This document shows positions 1 through 11,061 of a stretch of 11,061 bases of DNA, one piece after another. The translations under genes and the position numbers were made by a program. The notes beneath the pieces were generated by a model. It did not search any database, had not been told where the DNA came from, and saw only the letters and a list, made by a program, of their open reading frames with translations. The stretch's first letter is position 1, and every line of letters begins with the position of its first letter. The DNA comes from a virus, in UHGV virus genome UHGV-0272930. The stretch is one strand, 5' to 3'.

Positions 1-2
1 TG

Positions 3-110
3 CGGGCAACGGTGTTTAATTATATCGAATGTGATTACAATCGGTGGCGGCGGCACAGTTGGTGTGGCGGCCTCAGTCCGGAACAATTTGAAAACCAGAA
101 CCTCGCTTAG
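3..110 (+). CDS. insF: IS3 transposase OrfB (InsF), C-terminal fragment; 5' end lies outside the window
   Basis: Open frame from the window edge to TAG at 108-110; the translation matches the remembered IS3 OrfB C-terminus. Confidence 0.85.
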
Positions 111-140
111 GCCTGTGTCCATATTACGTGGGTAGGATCA
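102..140. repeat. IS3 right terminal inverted repeat (IRR)
   Basis: ctcgcttaggcctgtgtccatattacgtgggtaggatca; its reverse complement aligns with 10923-10961 at 28 of 39 positions, with the conserved TGATC tip. Confidence 0.85.
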
Positions 141-2505
141 TATTGTCCGTGCCGAATACGTCAAAGAATCCCATCTTAACCTTATATTCACCATCAACGA
201 TGTTTGGTACTGAGTCGAATTCAGGTGCATAACTGGTAAACAATCGGCTGGTATTCCCGTTAACAATACTGATAACAGCACCAGCATAATCACGTTCAGT
301 TGATTGTGTCCATGAAGCAAATAAATTACCAAAACCACCAGTGAATGATACGCCTTGTACTAATCCACATTGTTTGTTTTCTACTGTAATTTTCACTTCC
401 TGTGAATACGTTCCATCATTAAATCCCTGTGCGATAATACCAATAGTTGGTTTACGTACTTTTAAACGATTCATCGCAAGAGCGAAATTGAAACTATTGC
501 TTTGCGTATAGAAAGTATCTACAAGGGTTGTACCGTTATAGATTTTAATGATGTAGTACTTGAAGTAATCAGAATACGAGCGACCATTAACGATTAAGTT
601 CTTCTGTGAATCCCATGCAATATTAAAATCAGGTGCATCGGTGATTAACGCTGATTCAGTACGATTTGCCAGTACTACGCCAGTTACGGAAGGTAAAGCA
701 AAGTTATAAGTCGGTACTATTCCGTTAAGGGTTACACGCTGCGATACCAAACCAAGATTGTTATACGCCTCTACCCCAAAGTCATAGCTTGCAGTGTCAG
801 ACAATCCAAACAGTTCATAAGTGGTTTTCTGTACGCCCGTTTGCCCCGCATATGTCCATGTACTGGTACTGTGAAGTTTGTAGTAAACATAATAGCCCCG
901 TAGGTACGGATCTTCTGAAACCGTCCAGGTCAAATCAATGATAGAACCGCTGGTAGTGTTGCCCTTGCGTACTGCCTGTAGATTCGTTGGAGCCTTCACA
1001 GTAAGTTCAGGGAAGTTAATCACACCACCCGGCGACCATACGCCCGGATCTACACCGTCATACATCTGGTCAGGGGCTTCCACGCAGGTTAGCGTTACAT
1101 AGCCTACGTTCTCTTGATCGGTGGCAATGTCCTTGTTCAGTACTTTAAATTTACCTGAGATATTCAATTCGGCATTACTGACATTGATAGCATCCCATAC
1201 CTTGAGATCCCATCCTTCGGATGTGGTAAAGCTGATAGTACGTAAAGCATACTTTGCCTTGAGTACATCAACGTTTGCCATCTTAGCGATGACATCAGGA
1301 TCATATGACCAACTGTAATCACGACTAAGTGCGATTACCTGCCCGTCTTGCCGAACGGCTTCATCAACGGTTATATCTGAAGGTATGCGTACTACATCCG
1401 TGGTGTACATTGATTCAGGGTTAGTGAATTTGCAGTCAACCACATTGAAGTAGTCAGTACCGCCACTGGTTGAAATCTGTACAGCACCAACCATATTAGA
1501 TTCATTAAATGACGCTACTGAAACTGTTTTACGGTCTGTCGTAATACAAATCTGTCCGGCGTGAACATACATAATACCGCCAAATGATTGACAGATATTT
1601 TCTATGTTTTCTTTATAGCTTGATTGGTAACTGATAGCACCATTGGCGTAGTACTCGAAAGCATCACAATAGGCTGCCGTTTCTTTGAAGATATCAAGAT
1701 TAATTAATGCGGGATCAATACCCATCCCATACGTCGTATTTGTTAAGTAATCATAGATAATTGACGGTGGATTACTACTTGCTTTAATACTGCCATCCAC
1801 TAAATCAAAAATACGTTGCCCTTTCATTTCAACGGTCAAAGCAAACTGATCATTAACGAGAATGTTATTTTCTAATGATTTCTTCGTTTTCTTGATAACC
1901 GTACTGATACTAACAATGCCTTTACCAAGAAATTTATTAGTCCATTTTGGCCCTGCATATCCAGTAGCTAACGTTTTAGTACTGGTATAATCACCACCAA
2001 AGCGTACTTCTAGTTGTAGAAATTCCTGATACTTTTCCGCAATACTGGCTTTCGGTACTATGCCATCTTGTGTAATCGGTACGGCTAAAACTGGTTCGTT
2101 ATCGATATAGATCTGTAGAATATTCTTTTCAGTACCCGCATATGCTACAGCCTGTTCTGAAAAGAGATATTGAGAATCACTATTCGGTACGTTGTACCAT
2201 GACACAATTGAACCTGTCAGTACGTATGAACCGCCTGATACCCCGTTTTTATGTGGCAACTCACCGCCATAGATAACAGGTAATCCCGTAGTTGGGGAAG
2301 TACTTCGGCTTAATGAGTCCGACACATCCCCATAACCGCTTACGCCGATTTGCCCCAACATTGATGTAGCCACCAGTGAAGCAGCTCCCGCAGCAGCCCC
2401 CCAGCCAATCGCGGCTAATGCTGTACCGCCAGTAAAGTACACGGCTGCCGCGACAATTACCGCAGTTATGATAGCTCCAAAGAAGCCCCCTAAACTCTTA
2501 CCCAT
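124..2505 (-). CDS. Lambda gpJ-like central tail fibre / tip attachment protein with an N-terminal gpI-like hydrophobic Gly/Ala-rich domain; 3'-truncated by IS3 (native sequence ends at 141, last 4-5 codons and the stop come from the IS3 IRR)
   Basis: 793-aa ORF. Residues around 250-330 (IIYDYLTNTTYGMG...AAYCDAFEY) resemble the lambda J central region (WDMLTHPRYGMG...GQYCDQ). A fibronectin-III-like segment (LTWTVSEDPYLRGYYVYYKL...) follows. The N-terminal 60 residues (MGKSLGGFFGAIITAVIVAAAVYFTGGTALAAIGWGAAAGAASL) resemble the hydrophobic C-terminal half of lambda gpI. The reading frame runs across the IS3 junction at 140/141 and stops at 126..124 inside the IRR. Confidence 0.75.
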   Translation of the reverse strand: MGKSLGGFFGAIITAVIVAAAVYFTGGTALAAIGWGAAAGAASLVATSMLGQIGVSGYGDVSDSLSRSTSPTTGLPVIYGGELPHKNGVSGGSYVLTGSIVSWYNVPNSDSQYLFSEQAVAYAGTEKNILQIYIDNEPVLAVPITQDGIVPKASIAEKYQEFLQLEVRFGGDYTSTKTLATGYAGPKWTNKFLGKGIVSISTVIKKTKKSLENNILVNDQFALTVEMKGQRIFDLVDGSIKASSNPPSIIYDYLTNTTYGMGIDPALINLDIFKETAAYCDAFEYYANGAISYQSSYKENIENICQSFGGIMYVHAGQICITTDRKTVSVASFNESNMVGAVQISTSGGTDYFNVVDCKFTNPESMYTTDVVRIPSDITVDEAVRQDGQVIALSRDYSWSYDPDVIAKMANVDVLKAKYALRTISFTTSEGWDLKVWDAINVSNAELNISGKFKVLNKDIATDQENVGYVTLTCVEAPDQMYDGVDPGVWSPGGVINFPELTVKAPTNLQAVRKGNTTSGSIIDLTWTVSEDPYLRGYYVYYKLHSTSTWTYAGQTGVQKTTYELFGLSDTASYDFGVEAYNNLGLVSQRVTLNGIVPTYNFALPSVTGVVLANRTESALITDAPDFNIAWDSQKNLIVNGRSYSDYFKYYIIKIYNGTTLVDTFYTQSNSFNFALAMNRLKVRKPTIGIIAQGFNDGTYSQEVKITVENKQCGLVQGVSFTGGFGNLFASWTQSTERDYAGAVISIVNGNTSRLFTSYAPEFDSVPNIVDGEYKVKMGFFDVFGTDNMILPT

Positions 2506-2899
2506 TGTGTTTCCTTACTCTATAAAATGTTCCATTCGTTGGTTTTGGATGAAGTTCAAAGCCATCATGGCTTTCATTCACTCCAAGTACCCGACCTGAT
2601 ACAACCACTGCCATAATTAAAGGGTTATCAGGATCTAGCCATATATCACCGTCTATAACGACCTGTACGGGGTTACAGTACTGTTCAACTATCTCCCCTG
2701 TATGATTCCATCCTTCAGCCTTTAGACCTGCTATACCTTCCTGTACGCTTGTATATTCACGATTTGCTAATTGCGTAGTACCATTAATTAAATCGATAAT
2801 ACGTAATACAATAATATTGCAATCGTTATCTCCGAATTGATACGGGTTATCAATGGCGTACTGAATGACATTCATAATTTCATTGTGTAGATTTTTCAT
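2498..2899 (-). CDS. NlpC/P60-type tail tip peptidase, lambda gpK-like but lacking the N-terminal JAB/MPN domain
   Basis: 133 aa. QFGDNDCNIIVL and ESHDGFELHP resemble the Cys and His motifs of the gpK NlpC/P60 domain. Sits immediately upstream of the J-like gene with an 8-nt overlap, and its start overlaps the upstream stop as TAATG. No HxH...S..D JAMM motif is present. Confidence 0.55.
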   Translation of the reverse strand: MKNLHNEIMNVIQYAIDNPYQFGDNDCNIIVLRIIDLINGTTQLANREYTSVQEGIAGLKAEGWNHTGEIVEQYCNPVQVVIDGDIWLDPDNPLIMAVVVSGRVLGVNESHDGFELHPKPTNGTFYRVRKHNG

Positions 2900-3522
2900 T
2901 ATTTGTACTTCCAGTTTTGATTTTGATTAACTTGCCCTAACAGACTAAAGTACTCATCACCTTTGTAGTAAGATTGATATACTGAGTTAGCAGCAATTAA
3001 GGTCGGCTGTCGGTCTAGCTTTTTATATACACTGTTAACGTATATCGTCATTTCGTTAGTTTTTTGATTTGGGTCTGCTACTGCCTGTACGTAATCAATG
3101 AATCCTGAAAACATAAGCATTGAATCGATTACAGTACTGTCATATGGATTCAAGATTACTAATTTGATATTCATCTGAGCATCTTTAAGAAATCCACCTA
3201 ATGCAAGTGCACGTACTGATTGATTCACATTACTGACTTTGAAGTTGATAGCATCATTCGTGATGCCCTTTTGTTCTGAATAGGAAGGAAGTGAACCACT
3301 GATAATATCGGGGAAACTAATATATTGATAACCATCTAAATTGATATCTATAAGTGAGTCTGTCCAGTGAAAACCATTTGTGCCTTTTGGAAGTACATCA
3401 AAACAAGTTACCTGTACACCCAAGCTCATTACATCCATTAGTGTTAATCGTGTTTTCGTCGTACCTTTAACTAACTTCCAGTACTTCAATAGATTGGCAT
3501 TAGTAAAAACTGCATCATTCAT
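2899..3522 (-). CDS. Minor tail protein, lambda gpL-like (N-terminal domain only; no C-terminal Cys cluster)
   Basis: 207 aa. Occupies the lambda M-L-K-I-J position; weak motif resemblance (DGYQYISFP / FKVSNV against lambda L QYQPYP / LTVSNL). TAATG coupling at both ends. Confidence 0.45.
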   Translation of the reverse strand: MNDAVFTNANLLKYWKLVKGTTKTRLTLMDVMSLGVQVTCFDVLPKGTNGFHWTDSLIDINLDGYQYISFPDIISGSLPSYSEQKGITNDAINFKVSNVNQSVRALALGGFLKDAQMNIKLVILNPYDSTVIDSMLMFSGFIDYVQAVADPNQKTNEMTIYVNSVYKKLDRQPTLIAANSVYQSYYKGDEYFSLLGQVNQNQNWKYK

Positions 3523-4079
3523 TATGTAATATTCTCCGTTGCCTTAAATGTCATATTCATTATGTTACCGACTGGCAATGTATAGTCATTATCAGGGTCC
3601 AGTACTGCTTCGATCATCAGATTGTTATATTTAATAATCTCGCTTGCCTGTACTGTATTTTGTAAGACAGGAAAAATAGTAATAGAAGTACTGGTACGTT
3701 CTACAATGCGATATATTTTATTGTGGTTAGTAAATTGAATCCATTCACCTATCGCTAGAGAATTAGTACTGGTGTTGATTACCCTATTGCCTTTGTTAAC
3801 AAGTGCAGTACTGGTTAACGATCCCGTTTGTGTGCCTCTGTAGGTACTCAACAATCCAAGAGAAAAAGTAAAGGGCTTACCCTGTGAGTACTGAGCAAGG
3901 AAGTTTTGAACCTCTCCAATACTGGCAGTATTGAAACTTAACTGAAACTGAATCTCATAGTATTGAATACCTGTACTTCTCATGATACGTTGCCCTGTCC
4001 ATGTCTGATTTGAATAGACAGGTTCAGTACTTTTAATCTGGAAGTTTGTTATTTTTATTTGATTTGAAAAAGATGCCAT
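3522..4079 (-). CDS. Distal tail protein, lambda gpM-like with a C-terminal extension
   Basis: 185 aa. N-terminal segment YEIQFQLSF...EVQNFLAQYSQGKPFTF resembles lambda M (YSVTLSVPREEATVLESFLEEHGGWKSFLW). GAGGT Shine-Dalgarno 4-5 nt before the ATG at 4079. First gene of the tail tip set. Confidence 0.45.
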   Translation of the reverse strand: MASFSNQIKITNFQIKSTEPVYSNQTWTGQRIMRSTGIQYYEIQFQLSFNTASIGEVQNFLAQYSQGKPFTFSLGLLSTYRGTQTGSLTSTALVNKGNRVINTSTNSLAIGEWIQFTNHNKIYRIVERTSTSITIFPVLQNTVQASEIIKYNNLMIEAVLDPDNDYTLPVGNIMNMTFKATENIT

Positions 4080-4114
4080 TGTAACCTCAACAATCCTTGT
4101 TTCGAGTATTTATT

Positions 4115-4735
4115 ATGATTGACTTCTTAAACCACATATTGCCTATATTATCTGCTATTGCATTCCCTATAGTTGTTGTAGTAGTAACTCTTTATATAGT
4201 CTACAGAAGCGGAAGTACATCCATCATTGCTAATAAGATATGGGGGATATTCATTGGTGAGAAAAATTTCTTCAATGAAGAATTAGCATTAAAAGAAAAG
4301 GTTGAACATGATGTTGCTAAATTCAACTTTAAAGTAAATCTGAAAACCAGGAATCTCACTCAAATTGAACAATTTTATAAATTTCTGGAAAAATTCGATC
4401 TGGATATAGATAACTTCAAAGGACTTCGTGACTGCTACTTGCCCTCATTGCAGAAGGTCAAAAAAACATCTAAAAGTGAAATGTTTAATATTGGCCTGGT
4501 TGTCTTGTTAATAGGCGGTTTTTTGTTACCTATCTTCATTGGCGTGTTTATATTTAGAGACATTTCTACTTTCGACGGGGGGAAATTAGCAAATCTATTC
4601 TTTTATACGTTTTTAATTTCTGCCAGTACAGTTTTAAGTTTTAGTCAGTTACTTAGAAAGATTAAGTCAATCAGAACCCGTAAATTGATCTATAAAAAGA
4701 AATGCGAATATCTTGCAAACAGAAAGCCCATGTAG
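4115..4735 (+). CDS. Hypothetical membrane protein (moron) on the opposite strand to the structural operon; predicted N-terminal helix, soluble K/E/F-rich domain, two C-terminal helices and a basic tail; no recognisable family
   Basis: Only long plus-strand ORF not antisense to a minus-strand gene. ATG at 4115 (the ORF track begins at an in-frame TTG at 4097). Hydrophobic stretches ILPILSAIAFPIVVVVVTLYIVY, FNIGLVVLLIGGFLLPIFIGVFIF and FFYTFLISASTVLSFSQLL. Markedly more AT-rich than its neighbours by eye. Stop TAG at 4733-4735 lies inside a hairpin. Confidence 0.6.
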   Translation: MIDFLNHILPILSAIAFPIVVVVVTLYIVYRSGSTSIIANKIWGIFIGEKNFFNEELALKEKVEHDVAKFNFKVNLKTRNLTQIEQFYKFLEKFDLDIDNFKGLRDCYLPSLQKVKKTSKSEMFNIGLVVLLIGGFLLPIFIGVFIFRDISTFDGGKLANLFFYTFLISASTVLSFSQLLRKIKSIRTRKLIYKKKCEYLANRKPM

Positions 4736-4742: not shown

Positions 4743-5846
4743 TTAAGAATTACGTCTCTGGCTGCTTCTTACTGCCTGTGTCACACTGTTGGCGTGCTTC
4801 TTCAACATTTCATTGAATTTCTTATCATCACCTGCAACGTCACCCTGAATGATTAAGGGAGCGTTAACGGTGATGTCACCAGCAGTACTACCGCCTTTGT
4901 CCTGAGTATCGAGGAATTTAGTAAGTTTCTTGTTGGCTTCTGGCTGTACGACACGCTCACCGGCTTTCAGTACGAATGATTTATTATCATAACTAGATGG
5001 TAATTCATCTACGCCGCCGTGGAACTGCCCCGCATCAGCACCTTTTGCAGTACTGATAATGCTCAATCCAAGAGAGGCTACCTGTGCATAGTTCGCAAGG
5101 TTTTGAGGCCACGGCGTAGCAAGTGCCTGTGCAAGTGCGGATTGAATGCTTAGTACTGTCTGAGCTATCGTGATCCCACGTGAAACCATGAATGCCGCTT
5201 CGGCTGCACCAGACGATTCCCCAAATGCGGCCACCATCGCCCCACTAAGGTTTTGTGCAGTATCTGAGAAGATTGTGAGTTGTTGCTGTGCATTCTGGTT
5301 ACTGATATCAATGGCCTGAGCATTGTACTTTGCTGTTATACCAGTAGTGTTAGCACCTACGCCGTAATCCCCCTGATAGACAGGAAGAGGTGCAGCCATT
5401 GTCATTACACGGGCAACTACATCAGCAGGTGTAAATGAATAGGATTTAGTAACTACCTGATCCTTATCCCCGGATAATTGAGTACCCGTAACGTAACCAT
5501 TGACGATGGCATAAGTGATCTGACTTTCTTCTAAATCTAATTGATACTGAATAATGACCTGAAATACAGTTTGTGATTCAGCTATTTCATCTAAGAATTG
5601 GTGCGTAGGATCATCAGGTAAGTATGCAACCACAATATCAAATGGTTCTACTGATTTATCGGATAGTAGTACTGTCTTGTACTCATTATCATAGGTTTCA
5701 AAATTATTTGTTTCTGACTGGATGGTTAGAGCAGGAAATTCAGTTACATTATTAATAGTAACATTGCCTATGCCCTGTGGTGAACGGTTTCCAGTGTCCG
5801 TATTATATTGTAAAGTTAATCCCTTACCTGAAAAAATGTCGGCCAT
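4743..5846 (-). CDS. Chimeric tail protein: major tail tube (lambda gpV-like) N-terminal domain joined in frame to a tape-measure (lambda gpH-like) C-terminal region
   Basis: 367 aa. Residues 1 to about 150 (...TEFPALTIQSETNNFETYDNEY...KSVEPFDIVVAYLPDD...) resemble the gpV N-domain. Residues from about 160 are a Gly/Ala-rich hydrophobic block followed by GQFHGGVDEL...FVLKAGERVVQPEANKKL, resembling tape-measure C-termini. AAGGA Shine-Dalgarno 8 nt before the ATG at 5846. Confidence 0.5.
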   Translation of the reverse strand: MADIFSGKGLTLQYNTDTGNRSPQGIGNVTINNVTEFPALTIQSETNNFETYDNEYKTVLLSDKSVEPFDIVVAYLPDDPTHQFLDEIAESQTVFQVIIQYQLDLEESQITYAIVNGYVTGTQLSGDKDQVVTKSYSFTPADVVARVMTMAAPLPVYQGDYGVGANTTGITAKYNAQAIDISNQNAQQQLTIFSDTAQNLSGAMVAAFGESSGAAEAAFMVSRGITIAQTVLSIQSALAQALATPWPQNLANYAQVASLGLSIISTAKGADAGQFHGGVDELPSSYDNKSFVLKAGERVVQPEANKKLTKFLDTQDKGGSTAGDITVNAPLIIQGDVAGDDKKFNEMLKKHANSVTQAVRSSQRRNS

Positions 5847-5863
5847 TTTATATCCTTATAGCG

Positions 5864-6256
5864 TTATCTTGTTTTCTCCGTAACTTGAATATTTATCGTG
5901 AATGATAAAGAAACCGAGCCAGTTATAGGGTCTGTTACGATATCGGATTGTTCATATGAGTAAGAGAGAATGATTAAATCAGCATCCTTGAAAGCACGTG
6001 CTTTCTCATTATCAAAAGTACTGATAATCTGATCATAAGTAATTGATGGTGCAGTGTTGCCTGATTCTGGTTTTGGACTAATCAAGTACTGAATAGCAAA
6101 GTTACCTGCTTGTCTCTGCCCTCCAAAAGAAATTGAAGACAATGAGTAATCAAATGCTATCTGTTCAAATACATCGGCATCACGTGATATTGTTAGATTC
6201 TTAGTTGCGTTGATTAGCTGTTTCATTGTCTGGCGTACTTTCTGTACTAACATCAT
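5864..6256 (-). CDS. Putative tail terminator / tail completion protein (lambda gpU position and size)
   Basis: About 130 aa when started at the ATG at 6256, which is preceded by a GAGGA Shine-Dalgarno and lies 1 nt after the upstream stop. The ORF track's start at 6334 would overlap the upstream gene by 77 nt and is probably a spurious extension. Weak resemblance to gpU (SRDADVFEQIAFDY against GRPAVFDEADFPAV). Confidence 0.35.
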   Translation of the reverse strand: MMLVQKVRQTMKQLINATKNLTISRDADVFEQIAFDYSLSSISFGGQRQAGNFAIQYLISPKPESGNTAPSITYDQIISTFDNEKARAFKDADLIILSYSYEQSDIVTDPITGSVSLSFTINIQVTEKTR

Positions 6257-6257
6257 A

Positions 6258-6581
6258 TTAGTAGTCCTCTGCAAATGAAGCACCAGCAGAAGTACGAAAG
6301 TAGCAATTAACCATACCTGACCGATCATCTTCAATATTATAAATTGTTTGGTTTACACCATCGATGATCAGTACTGTACCGATAGCTATATCAGCATTAA
6401 CTAAATCATCCTTTCTCATTGTTACGTATGTTTCTGTACTTTCGATAAATCCACCTGCCGCTTCAATAGAAACGGGAAGTACTTCTGCAATTCCAGTAAA
6501 AGTACTTCCCGTAGAAGTTTGGATTAATTGACCGAAAGCATTTAGAAACGTATCTTGTTGACCGTTAGAAAATGCTCTCAT
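6258..6581 (-). CDS. Head-tail joining protein, lambda gpFII-like
   Basis: 107 aa. C-terminal half (...DIAIGTVLIIDGVNQTIYNIEDDRSGMVNCYFRTS) resembles lambda FII (...GDTLTIGEENFWVDRVSPDDGGSCHLWLGRG). Lies directly downstream of the capsid gene. Confidence 0.5.
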   Translation of the reverse strand: MRAFSNGQQDTFLNAFGQLIQTSTGSTFTGIAEVLPVSIEAAGGFIESTETYVTMRKDDLVNADIAIGTVLIIDGVNQTIYNIEDDRSGMVNCYFRTSAGASFAEDY

Positions 6582-6586
6582 AGTTA

Positions 6587-10408
<3,822 letters not shown>

Positions 10409-10411
10409 TTA

Positions 10412-10961
<550 letters not shown>

Positions 10962-10987
10962 TAAACTCTCAGTCAGAGGTGACTCAC

Positions 10988-11061
10988 ATGACAAAAACAG
11001 TATCAACCAGTAAAAAACCCCGTAAACAGCATTCGCCTGAATTTCGCAGTGAAGCCCTGAA
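10988..11061 (+). CDS. insE: IS3 transposase OrfA (InsE), N-terminal 24 codons; continues beyond the window
   Basis: ATG at 10988 preceded by GAGGTGACTCAC; translation MTKTVSTSKKPRKQHSPEFRSEAL. Confidence 0.85.
   Translation, partial: MTKTVSTSKKPRKQHSPEFRSEAL

Follow-up and report, generated by a model that had tools for sequence, protein, structure and literature searches.

In phage lambda, the tip of the tail is encoded by the genes K, I and J in this order. The lambda sequences that we fetched as a reference carry Prok-JAB plus NLPC_P60 in K and the Pfam family Lambda_tail_I (PF06805), on residues 14-97 only, in I, which is followed by J. The remaining part of gpI (~101-223) provides a pair of hydrophobic helices (H1 and H2), a plug in the lumen of the tip, and strands that thread gpJ (PMC11101478; PMC10721106). 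gpI holds the C-terminus of the tape measure, and its entry into the outer membrane upon opening of the cone was proposed (PMC11101478; PMC10721106; PMC12617516). The ubiquitin-like (Ubl) domain at the N-terminus of gpI is not visible in any structure; gpK is reported to clip it off once gpI is in the tip (PMC12908700), and the F-pyocin homologue has shed the N-terminal domain by the time the tip is joined to the tube (bioRxiv 2026.02.24.707460). Across phages, the hub domains are spread over one to three polypeptides (PMC13243795; PMC10721106). In the gene transfer agent (GTA) RcGTA and in roseophage R4C, the J-like megatron protein starts with an iris/penetration domain of two hydrophobic helices, which shuts the channel and was proposed to form an outer-membrane pore (PMC7296036, PMC10276861). 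Here, we describe the tail-tip genes of a prophage fragment within the virus genome UHGV-0272930 (11,061 nt; the whole stretch is called the window in the following). We consider it probable that in this prophage family of the Enterobacteriaceae the J-like hub protein carries the structural half of gpI in cis, in its first ~105 residues.

Tail-tip genes and the J-like protein's N-terminus

The region under study (2205-2899, minus strand) comprises the K-like open reading frame (ORF) at 2498-2899, which encodes 133 aa, and codons 1-100 of the J-like ORF, which spans 124-2505 on the same strand and encodes 793 aa in the window. The stop codon of the K-like gene and the ATG of the J-like gene lie within an overlap of 8 nt (ATGGGTAA), preceded by an AAGGA ribosome-binding site, and thus leave no room for an I gene. 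In agreement with this, the ORF list of the window contains no ORF between the two genes. On the other side, the K-like gene overlaps the L-like gene (2899-3522, minus strand) by 1 nt. A preliminary description, made from the letters of this DNA, had claimed that there is no separate I gene and that a hydrophobic I-like segment is covalently attached to J. Both statements hold: the 8-nt overlap accounts for the former, which applies likewise to 12 related loci, and residues 1-105 of the J-like protein represent the segment in question.

The body of the J-like protein (residues 106-788; 141-2190, minus strand) consists of hub domains, Phage-tail_3 and FN3 repeats. It matches Phage-tail_3 with 24.3 bits (cut-off 23), fn3 with 25.4 bits (cut-off 25) and phrog_31 with an E-value of 3.6e-46, and full-length relatives carry Phage_Tail_Tip (PF09327). 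A Foldseek search with the predicted structure returned T5 pb3 (E 1.4e-29), lambda gpJ (E 5.9e-25) and the RcGTA megatron (E 4e-12), as well as T1, Chi and JBD30, with phage hubs at E 1e-29 to 1e-22. Judged by profile and fold-model matches, the body is a baseplate hub protein of the J type, the class in which FN3 repeats and a fibre come after the hub domains HDII-HDIV.

In front of this body, residues 1-105 (2191-2505, minus strand) form a module that resembles the C-terminal half of gpI (gpI-C), with a putative plug or penetration function; it is delimited by hhalign, by a hidden Markov model (HMM) of gpI-C and by the overlap in phrog_31. Its first 55 residues include 11 Gly, 14 Ala, a single charged residue and 13 small-xxx-small motifs, and reach a Kyte-Doolittle hydropathy of 2.1. 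The hydropathy maximum falls on the Gly/Ala-rich helix 1 (residues 9-22; 2440-2481, minus strand), which is predicted to span a membrane and aligns with helix H1 of gpI (GGFFGAIITAVIVAAAVYFTGG to GGVFQIVLGAAAIAGSFFTAG). Helix 2 (residues 35-48; 2362-2403, minus strand) aligns with gpI helix H2 both in hhalign and in the HMM alignment. Both helices were assigned by DSSP on the AlphaFold2 model of the monomer, which places them with low confidence. The motif SRSTSPxxGLPVIYGG (residues 66-81; 2263-2310, minus strand) is the most conserved part of the module; R67, S68, G74, P76 and G80 are invariant in 43 J-like N-termini. Its counterpart in gpI is QGNxxPVLYGE (GnpvPllYGe in the aligned gpI profile), and the model shows a strand at residues 77-79. 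The module ends in beta strands at residues 95-105 (VLTGSIVSWYN; 2191-2223, minus strand), split by DSSP into 95-98 and 100-105 with a predicted local distance difference test score (pLDDT) of 60-78. Like the strand at 77-79, they are modelled with moderate confidence, and hhalign pairs them with VGSRVVSQEI, the strand by which gpI augments the gpJ sheets in lambda (PMC10721106).

The comparison with gpI is based on two profiles. One combines gpI of 12 diverse phages with lambda-like sequences, 11 phage records having supplied diverse gpI, K and J proteins; the other was built from 43 J-like N-termini. Both are shallow, with Neff values of 2-3.6. hhalign places J-like residues 2-105 on gpI 97-212 over ~95-107 columns with a probability of 87-92% and P-values of 4e-7 to 5e-6. 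The alignment is collinear and follows the same order of elements throughout: GKS-GG, helix 1 (GGFFGAIITAVIVAAAVYFTGGTALAA vs GGVFQIVLGAAAIAGSFFTAGATLAA), helix 2, a linker, GLPVIYGG vs NVLPVLYGE, and a strand. The score of 45.3 compares with 13.4 +/- 2.7 (maximum 21.5) for 200 column shuffles. Against local shuffles that preserve blocks (24-26 +/- 4.4, maximum 41.4) it still lies 4-5 standard deviations above the mean. The gpI-C HMM gives 10.0 bits for the J-like N-terminus of the window, while 2000 composition-matched shuffles do not exceed 8.9 bits. In the related loci, the J-like N-terminus is the sole ORF matched by the gpI HMM, and the full-length gpI model matches the J-like proteins of the family only at its positions ~89-146, after the Ubl domain. 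A further link is provided by the J family PHROG 31. Lambda gpI matches this profile at positions 132-276 (E 3.5e-8), and residues 11-141 of the window protein match it at positions 175-315 (E 0.0036), overlapping the part that is matched by gpI. PHROG 31 thus includes an I-like stretch which bridges gpI and the J-like N-terminus.

This evidence also bears on the main competing explanation, in which the N-terminus is a plug or penetration domain of independent origin, like that of RcGTA and R4C, whose likeness to gpI-C arose by convergence, a shared task having led to like composition and a like succession of elements; the function would be the same, and no fusion of I and J would have taken place. 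Convergence sits poorly with a match that is collinear through four elements (the GKS-GG start, helix 1 with FTGG(A/T)xLAA, helix 2, and PVxYG with the following strand), with a score well above that of block-preserving shuffles, with the union of gpI-like and J N-terminal sequence in PHROG 31, found independently, and with the selectivity of the gpI HMM in related loci. An independent origin gains from the J-like N-termini of RcGTA and R4C, which have no detectable gpI similarity (the R4C megatron yields negative HMM scores; PMC7296036), and from the domain shuffling known in hub proteins (PMC13243795). It also gains from the following searches, which weigh against a common origin with gpI.

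BLASTP of the J-like N-terminus against lambda gpI gives an E-value of 0.15. Pfam and PHROG scans of J-like residues 1-151 and 1-103 at E<=10 report no gpI family. phmmer with residues 1-120 against 1.8 billion representatives finds 15 matches, none of them gpI-like; 14 of these are N-termini of J-like proteins or short fragments, and one is a weak match internal to a 448-aa protein (E 1.6e-4). The HMM of the J-like N-terminus finds no gpI chain among all PDB sequences, and its best matches there are transmembrane segments of the unrelated proteins SCAP and TraT (E ~0.1). HMM-versus-sequence methods are consistent in this respect. Gly/Ala-rich hydrophobic helices are moreover prone to spurious profile matches, and residues 1-73 of the model have a pLDDT below 50, so that no structural superposition on gpI is possible. 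The low confidence of the helices is attributed to the expected need of such a segment for its trimeric partners. The gpI-C HMM finds the gpI proteins of lambda, T1 and F2-pyocin in the PDB, and no hub or megatron proteins. An alignment of the J-like family with gpJ N-termini, aimed at placing the I/J junction, reaches only P 0.055 (window residues 129-161 to gpJ 42-70), and a search of IMG/VR with the gpI alignment returned only near-identical copies of lambda.

The negative Pfam result is uninformative in this context, since PF06805 models residues 14-97 of gpI only, i.e., the Ubl domain. The resemblance to the hydrophobic half of gpI, which the preliminary description had noticed in the first 60-100 residues, is therefore borne out by the profile-profile comparison, by the shuffles and by PHROG 31, while a match to the Pfam model of gpI was not obtained. 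Implementing all facts, homology of the J-like N-terminus with gpI-C is probable; we do not regard it as proven, because the similarity is invisible to HMM-versus-sequence searches. Functional equivalence of the two is very likely, and an independent origin appears unlikely.

The hydrophobic character of the segment admits another function, namely that of a membrane anchor or signal-like element which acts in the producing cell and not as a plug in the virion, e.g., by attaching J to the inner membrane or in lysis or exclusion. Residues 1-55, with their single charge and high hydropathy, do look like a signal anchor, and their placement in the AlphaFold2 model is not confident. Direct reading of the sequence reveals neither a signal-peptidase motif nor a lipobox motif, the segment runs unbroken into the strands of moderate confidence and from there into the hub body, and the equivalent segments of gpI, PA0640 and the megatron are seen inside tail tips. 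We regard such an anchor as very improbable compared with gpI-C encoded in cis.

The DUF6950 protein and conservation of the module

The K-like protein belongs to the Pfam family DUF6950 (PF22262), which it matches with 36.7 bits against a cut-off of 27 at profile positions 7-125 of 134; 53 out of 55 homologues carry this family as well. DUF6950 is its sole family, with neither a Prok-JAB nor a NLPC_P60 match in Pfam, and an NCBIfam scan of the tail-tip proteins yielded no matches. A literature search found no mention of DUF6950. The AlphaFold model, which is based on 27 homologues, has a pLDDT of 94 and a predicted template modelling score (pTM) of 0.88, and suggests an NlpC/P60 (papain-like) fold without an MPN/JAB domain. 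Cys27, within an NDCN motif at the N-terminus of the helix 27-39, and His111 are invariant in the family.

In lambda, the JAB/MPN domain of K precedes the NlpC/P60 part. That the K-like gene of the window encodes only the latter was proposed in the preliminary description and agrees with the confident fold model and with the lack of a Prok-JAB match. A JAMM motif or a Ubl domain overlooked in these ORFs would have spoken against it. The JAMM-like string H.H...D occurs in none of the ORFs of positions 1-4200 in six frames, PF06805 does not match any window protein at E<=1, nor the J-like N-terminus at E<=10, and the K-family HMM finds no match in the 12 related loci.

The relation to gpK is distant. 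BLASTP of the K-like protein against gpK gives an E-value of 8.9 and hhalign a P-value of 0.13, neither of which is significant. Comparisons of DUF6950 by hhalign with K proteins, with ORF19 of Loki and with the peptidase of R4C did not reach significance either. Weak links exist in other scans: lambda gpK matches phrog_2134 (E 0.0048) and DUF6950 (E 0.067), and the tail peptidase gp15 of roseophage R4C matches NLPC_P60 (E 5e-6) and DUF6950 (E 2e-5). By its profile matches, the K-like protein should be seen as a member of a distinct family, DUF6950, and not as a truncated gpK. Its catalytic activity is uncertain. NlpC/P60 (C40) peptidases combine a catalytic Cys at the N-terminal end of a helix with a His on the next strand and a third polar residue. 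The canonical position of the catalytic His reads Leu94, both by eye and in the non-significant hhalign alignment with gpK, and the DUF6950 protein of the cultured phage Loki (18158-18592 of its record) retains the Cys (FDCC) and has no His in its C-terminal half. Together with the insignificant gpK comparison, these observations weaken the case for an active peptidase, and some DUF6950 members may be non-catalytic proteins of NlpC/P60 fold. The most divergent DUF6950 of the family, with 35% identity, is encoded in Mangrovibacter plantisponsor (locus L106, 2492-2917). It contains a stretch QHNAYIAV that resembles the canonical His motif PNHAAIY of gpK, where the close relatives of the window protein read NPLIMAVVV.

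The gene order is conserved. We inspected two sets of loci, the first with the intact relative and the most divergent family members (41-46% identity in J), the second with eight species-representative genomes from Scandinavium, Pluralibacter, Buttiauxella, Pseudescherichia, Phytobacter, Enterobacter, Pseudocitrobacter and Mangrovibacter. In all 12 loci, a distal tail protein (~185 aa), an L-like protein (~207-211 aa), a DUF6950 protein (123-141 aa) and a J-like protein with a hydrophobic N-terminus follow each other, and neither an I gene nor an MPN domain is present. The survey of K, I and J domain combinations in homologous prophages, which the preliminary description had called for, gives the same picture throughout, and the joint absence of the Ubl and the JAB domain noted there extends to 12 out of 12 family loci. 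In comparisons with unsaturated dS, the N-terminal segment shows a ratio of nonsynonymous to synonymous substitution rates (dN/dS) of 0.0-0.3, and the K-like gene one of 0.10-0.34. The recurrence of the layout in many loci and the low dN/dS indicate a maintained design and not decay. A tblastn search with the K-like protein and the J-like N-terminus in 50,697 phage records (INPHARED) returned no match, although homologues occur frequently in assemblies. The cultured Acinetobacter phage Loki (Lokivirus), to which a search of viral protein structures pointed, has the same layout in ORF18-ORF19-ORF20.

These data decide on a further explanation, in which prophage decay produced the arrangement as an artefact: a dying lambda-like prophage would have lost I and also the 5' (MPN) part of K through a deletion, leaving chance ORFs behind. 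The state of the window itself lends some weight to this idea, since it is bounded by IS3, contains truncated J and terL genes and has lost 5.1 kb of tail genes. Iyer et al. moreover suggested that NlpC-only versions of K are possibly degenerate prophage variants (PMC1779556). Decay does not account for a four-gene layout with its sizes and tight overlaps in 12 loci from at least eight genera, apparently intact prophages included, nor for its presence in Loki. The low dN/dS values of both the N-terminal segment and the K-like gene, and a K-like protein that is a complete domain with a Pfam family of its own, point in the same direction. With the conserved layout and the dN/dS values, we consider this explanation effectively refuted and rejected it.

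The surrounding prophage remnant

All phage genes of the window are located on the minus strand, except for a DUF6216 gene on the plus strand. The large terminase is represented by its C-terminal end (10412-10771) and is followed by a protein for head-tail joining, a portal of the lambda type (8361-9869), a fusion of protease and capsid (6587-8413), two small genes for connectors and an ORF of 367 aa (4743-5846). The tail-tip genes begin with the distal tail protein (185 aa; 3522-4079), which matches phrog_1302 'distal tail protein' (E 2.6e-14) and, below the cut-off, the Pfam domain DTP-pb9_B-dom (E 7.7e-5). Next to it lies the L-like hub or minor tail protein of 207 aa in the position equivalent to gpL (phrog_2048 'tail protein', E 3.9e-24). 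A Pfam scan of this protein gave no Phage_tail_L match, and because it has only one Cys, it lacks a 4Fe-4S site.

The J-like gene is cut by the end of an IS3-family element (1-140), which is 98-99% identical to the IS3 copies that thousands of E. coli genomes carry. The reading frame enters the IS3 sequence after residue 788 and stops at position 124. A 99% identical protein from E. coli and relatives (P0001) has a full length of 1067 aa, compared with 793 aa here, and thus confirms that IS3 cut the gene. IS3 sequence occurs at both ends of the window (1-140 and ~10901-11061) in the same orientation; in E. coli genomes, one piece maps to one end and the second piece to the other end of single IS3 copies of ~1.28 kb. 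IS3 copies hence bracket a 10.7-kb prophage fragment and truncate both the J-like gene and the large terminase.

In comparison with the intact relative L003, the window lacks 5.1 kb, with the junction at 5330-5339. The deletion took the gene of the major tail protein along with the chaperones, part of a 928-aa fibre-like gene and most of the tape measure. The 367-aa ORF is a fusion created by this deletion: its N-terminal ~172 residues are the start of the 928-aa Peptidase_S74 fibre-like protein of L003, and its C-terminal ~195 residues are the end of a 736-aa tape measure. The two alignment blocks overlap by 10 bp at the junction, which suggests microhomology. Due to the IS3 truncation and the deletion, the copy in the window is a dead, non-functional prophage remnant. 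With an apparently intact prophage it shares 98% identity in the tail-tip module.

Some further features of the element were observed. The gene of the 928-aa protein of L003 (1509-4295) separates the connector genes from the major tail gene. Over its first ~150 residues, the protein matches phrog_158 'major tail protein' (E 1.7e-10), and its C-terminus carries the Peptidase_S74 domain, an intramolecular chaperone. Both this tube-like plus fibre architecture and the position of the gene are unusual. A single polypeptide of 608 aa comprises both the prohead protease (Peptidase_S78) and the major capsid protein of HK97 type, a fusion that is also present in the intact relative. The DUF6216 gene (4097-4735, plus strand) encodes a predicted membrane protein of 212 aa between the tape-measure and distal tail genes, is kept at the equivalent place in the relatives L003 and L096, and looks like a moron. 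An ORF of 156 aa (5864-6334, minus strand) with a TTG start overlaps the upstream 107-aa gene by 77 nt; its true start is probably located further downstream, since the gene of the intact relative at this position has 130 aa. The GC content of the window ranges from 31 to 49%, mostly 35-42%, and the element is found in E. coli and other Enterobacteriaceae.

Proposed working of the tip and comparison with known systems

While layout, folds, profile similarity, conservation and purifying selection can be read from the data, the location in the lumen, the insertion into a membrane and the role and activity of DUF6950 are modelled in analogy to the structures of lambda, F-pyocin, T5 and RcGTA. By this analogy, residues ~74-105 (LPVIYGG...LTGSIVSW) would form strands that lock into the sheets of the hub domains, with the SRSTSP linker and the helices 9-22 and 35-48 inside the lumen of the trimeric cone. 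There, linker and helices would act as a plug of the channel and grip the tape measure at its C-terminus. Upon receptor binding, the cone would open and release the helices, which would then insert into the outer membrane. The DUF6950 protein in the K position may be a peptidoglycan peptidase carried on the tail or serve as a factor in assembly, like the second domain of gpK or the tail peptidase of GTA and R4C, to which we propose a distant relationship.

The start of the J-like protein deserves attention in this context. Its first residues (M-GKSLGG) align with A97-K98-S99-G100-G101 of gpI, right after the invariant Gly that ends the Ubl domain. This invariant residue, Gly96, lies a few residues before 101, the first residue resolved in the closed lambda tip (PMC11101478), and the Pfam model of the Ubl domain ends at 97. 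A plug that is encoded in cis with a ready-made free N-terminus would need neither a ubiquitin-like tag nor a JAB peptidase, which would explain why both are missing. The wording of the preliminary description, that the two domains were lost together, presupposes a lambda-like ancestor. Single-chain or cis arrangements, as in the T5 pb3 plug and the RcGTA megatron, are equally plausible as the ancestral state.

A more far-reaching interpretation is conceivable, which we put forward as tentative and hold to be less probable than its opposite. It takes the family as a natural, 'checkpoint-free' version of the lambda-type tip, with a plug in cis and a free N-terminus at the reported gpK cut site. 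The Ubl/JAB checkpoint would then be dispensable, the stand-alone NlpC/P60 protein would have an independent essential role, and gpI-C and the iris/penetration domains of GTA megatrons would descend from one ancient module. If true, the two activities of gpK would be separable, and its NlpC/P60 half would be an assembly factor or an ejected cell-wall peptidase. The joint absence of Ubl and JAB is comparative support for the reported cleavage of the gpI Ubl domain by gpK, and the family offers a simple system for asking about the role of the NlpC/P60 half of gpK. It also permits a functional annotation of DUF6950 and of the unannotated N-terminal regions that some thousand 'phage tail tip fiber' proteins from Enterobacteriaceae possess.

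Among the known systems, lambda gpI is the reference for the module itself. Its C-terminal half (~97-223; homologues in T1 and in F-pyocin, PA0640) has the same order of elements, ending in P-x-x-YG plus a strand, and an equivalent genomic position, directly upstream of the J body or at its beginning. The module of the window differs in that it is not a separate gene, has no ubiquitin-like N-domain and possesses a shorter linker with a SRSTSP motif of its own. The TAPI-TAPJ fusions that Iyer, Burroughs and Aravind (2006) described in prophages join I to J next to an NlpC/P60 protein, 'TAPK', without JAB (PMC1779556), as is the case here. Those fusions were found via the ubiquitin-like domain, which is absent in the present family, where the protein starts at the would-be cleavage site; the comparison is by description only.

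RcGTA (g14 and g15) and R4C (gp15 and gp16) share the order distal tail protein, hub, stand-alone NlpC/P60-type protein and large J-like protein (gp13-16 in R4C) with the window, and also the hydrophobic N-terminus of the latter and the lack of gpI and JAB (PMC7296036, PMC10276861). The likeness is one of design only. The N-termini show no detectable sequence similarity, as the N-terminal HMMs give no signal with the R4C megatron, and the L-like hub of the window has no Fe-S cysteines. GTA_TIM, Rcc01698_C, Phage_BR0599 and TIGR02219-type models, which do match R4C, have no match among the window proteins in Pfam and NCBIfam.

In Loki, ORF19 is a DUF6950 protein (E 6.6e-16) directly upstream of the J-like ORF20 (Phage-tail_3 plus fn3), whose N-terminus shows two hydrophobic helices and, after them, ...MVYGKARISG. 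The sequences have very little in common, with 6.2 bits for the gpI-C HMM and ~0 for the HMM of the J-like N-terminus. Loki differs further by an additional non-contractile tail sheath protein (ORF17) and by a DUF6950 without the conserved His. By structure, the J-like body is closest to T5 pb3, in which the hub chain itself includes a plug with a proposed membrane-anchoring role (PMC10721106). In T5, however, the plug is inserted within the HDII-insertion domain and is not an N-terminal extension, and HDI is in the same chain.

The pattern is not new in kind and was largely anticipated (PMC1779556; PMC7296036), nor does it reveal a new mechanism. Siphophage tail tips are composed of the same domains, differently distributed among polypeptides, and the present family adds a clean case. 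Specific to it are the fusion of gpI-C without the ubiquitin-like domain, which we regard as probable, the detectable similarity to gpI, and DUF6950 as the partner protein.

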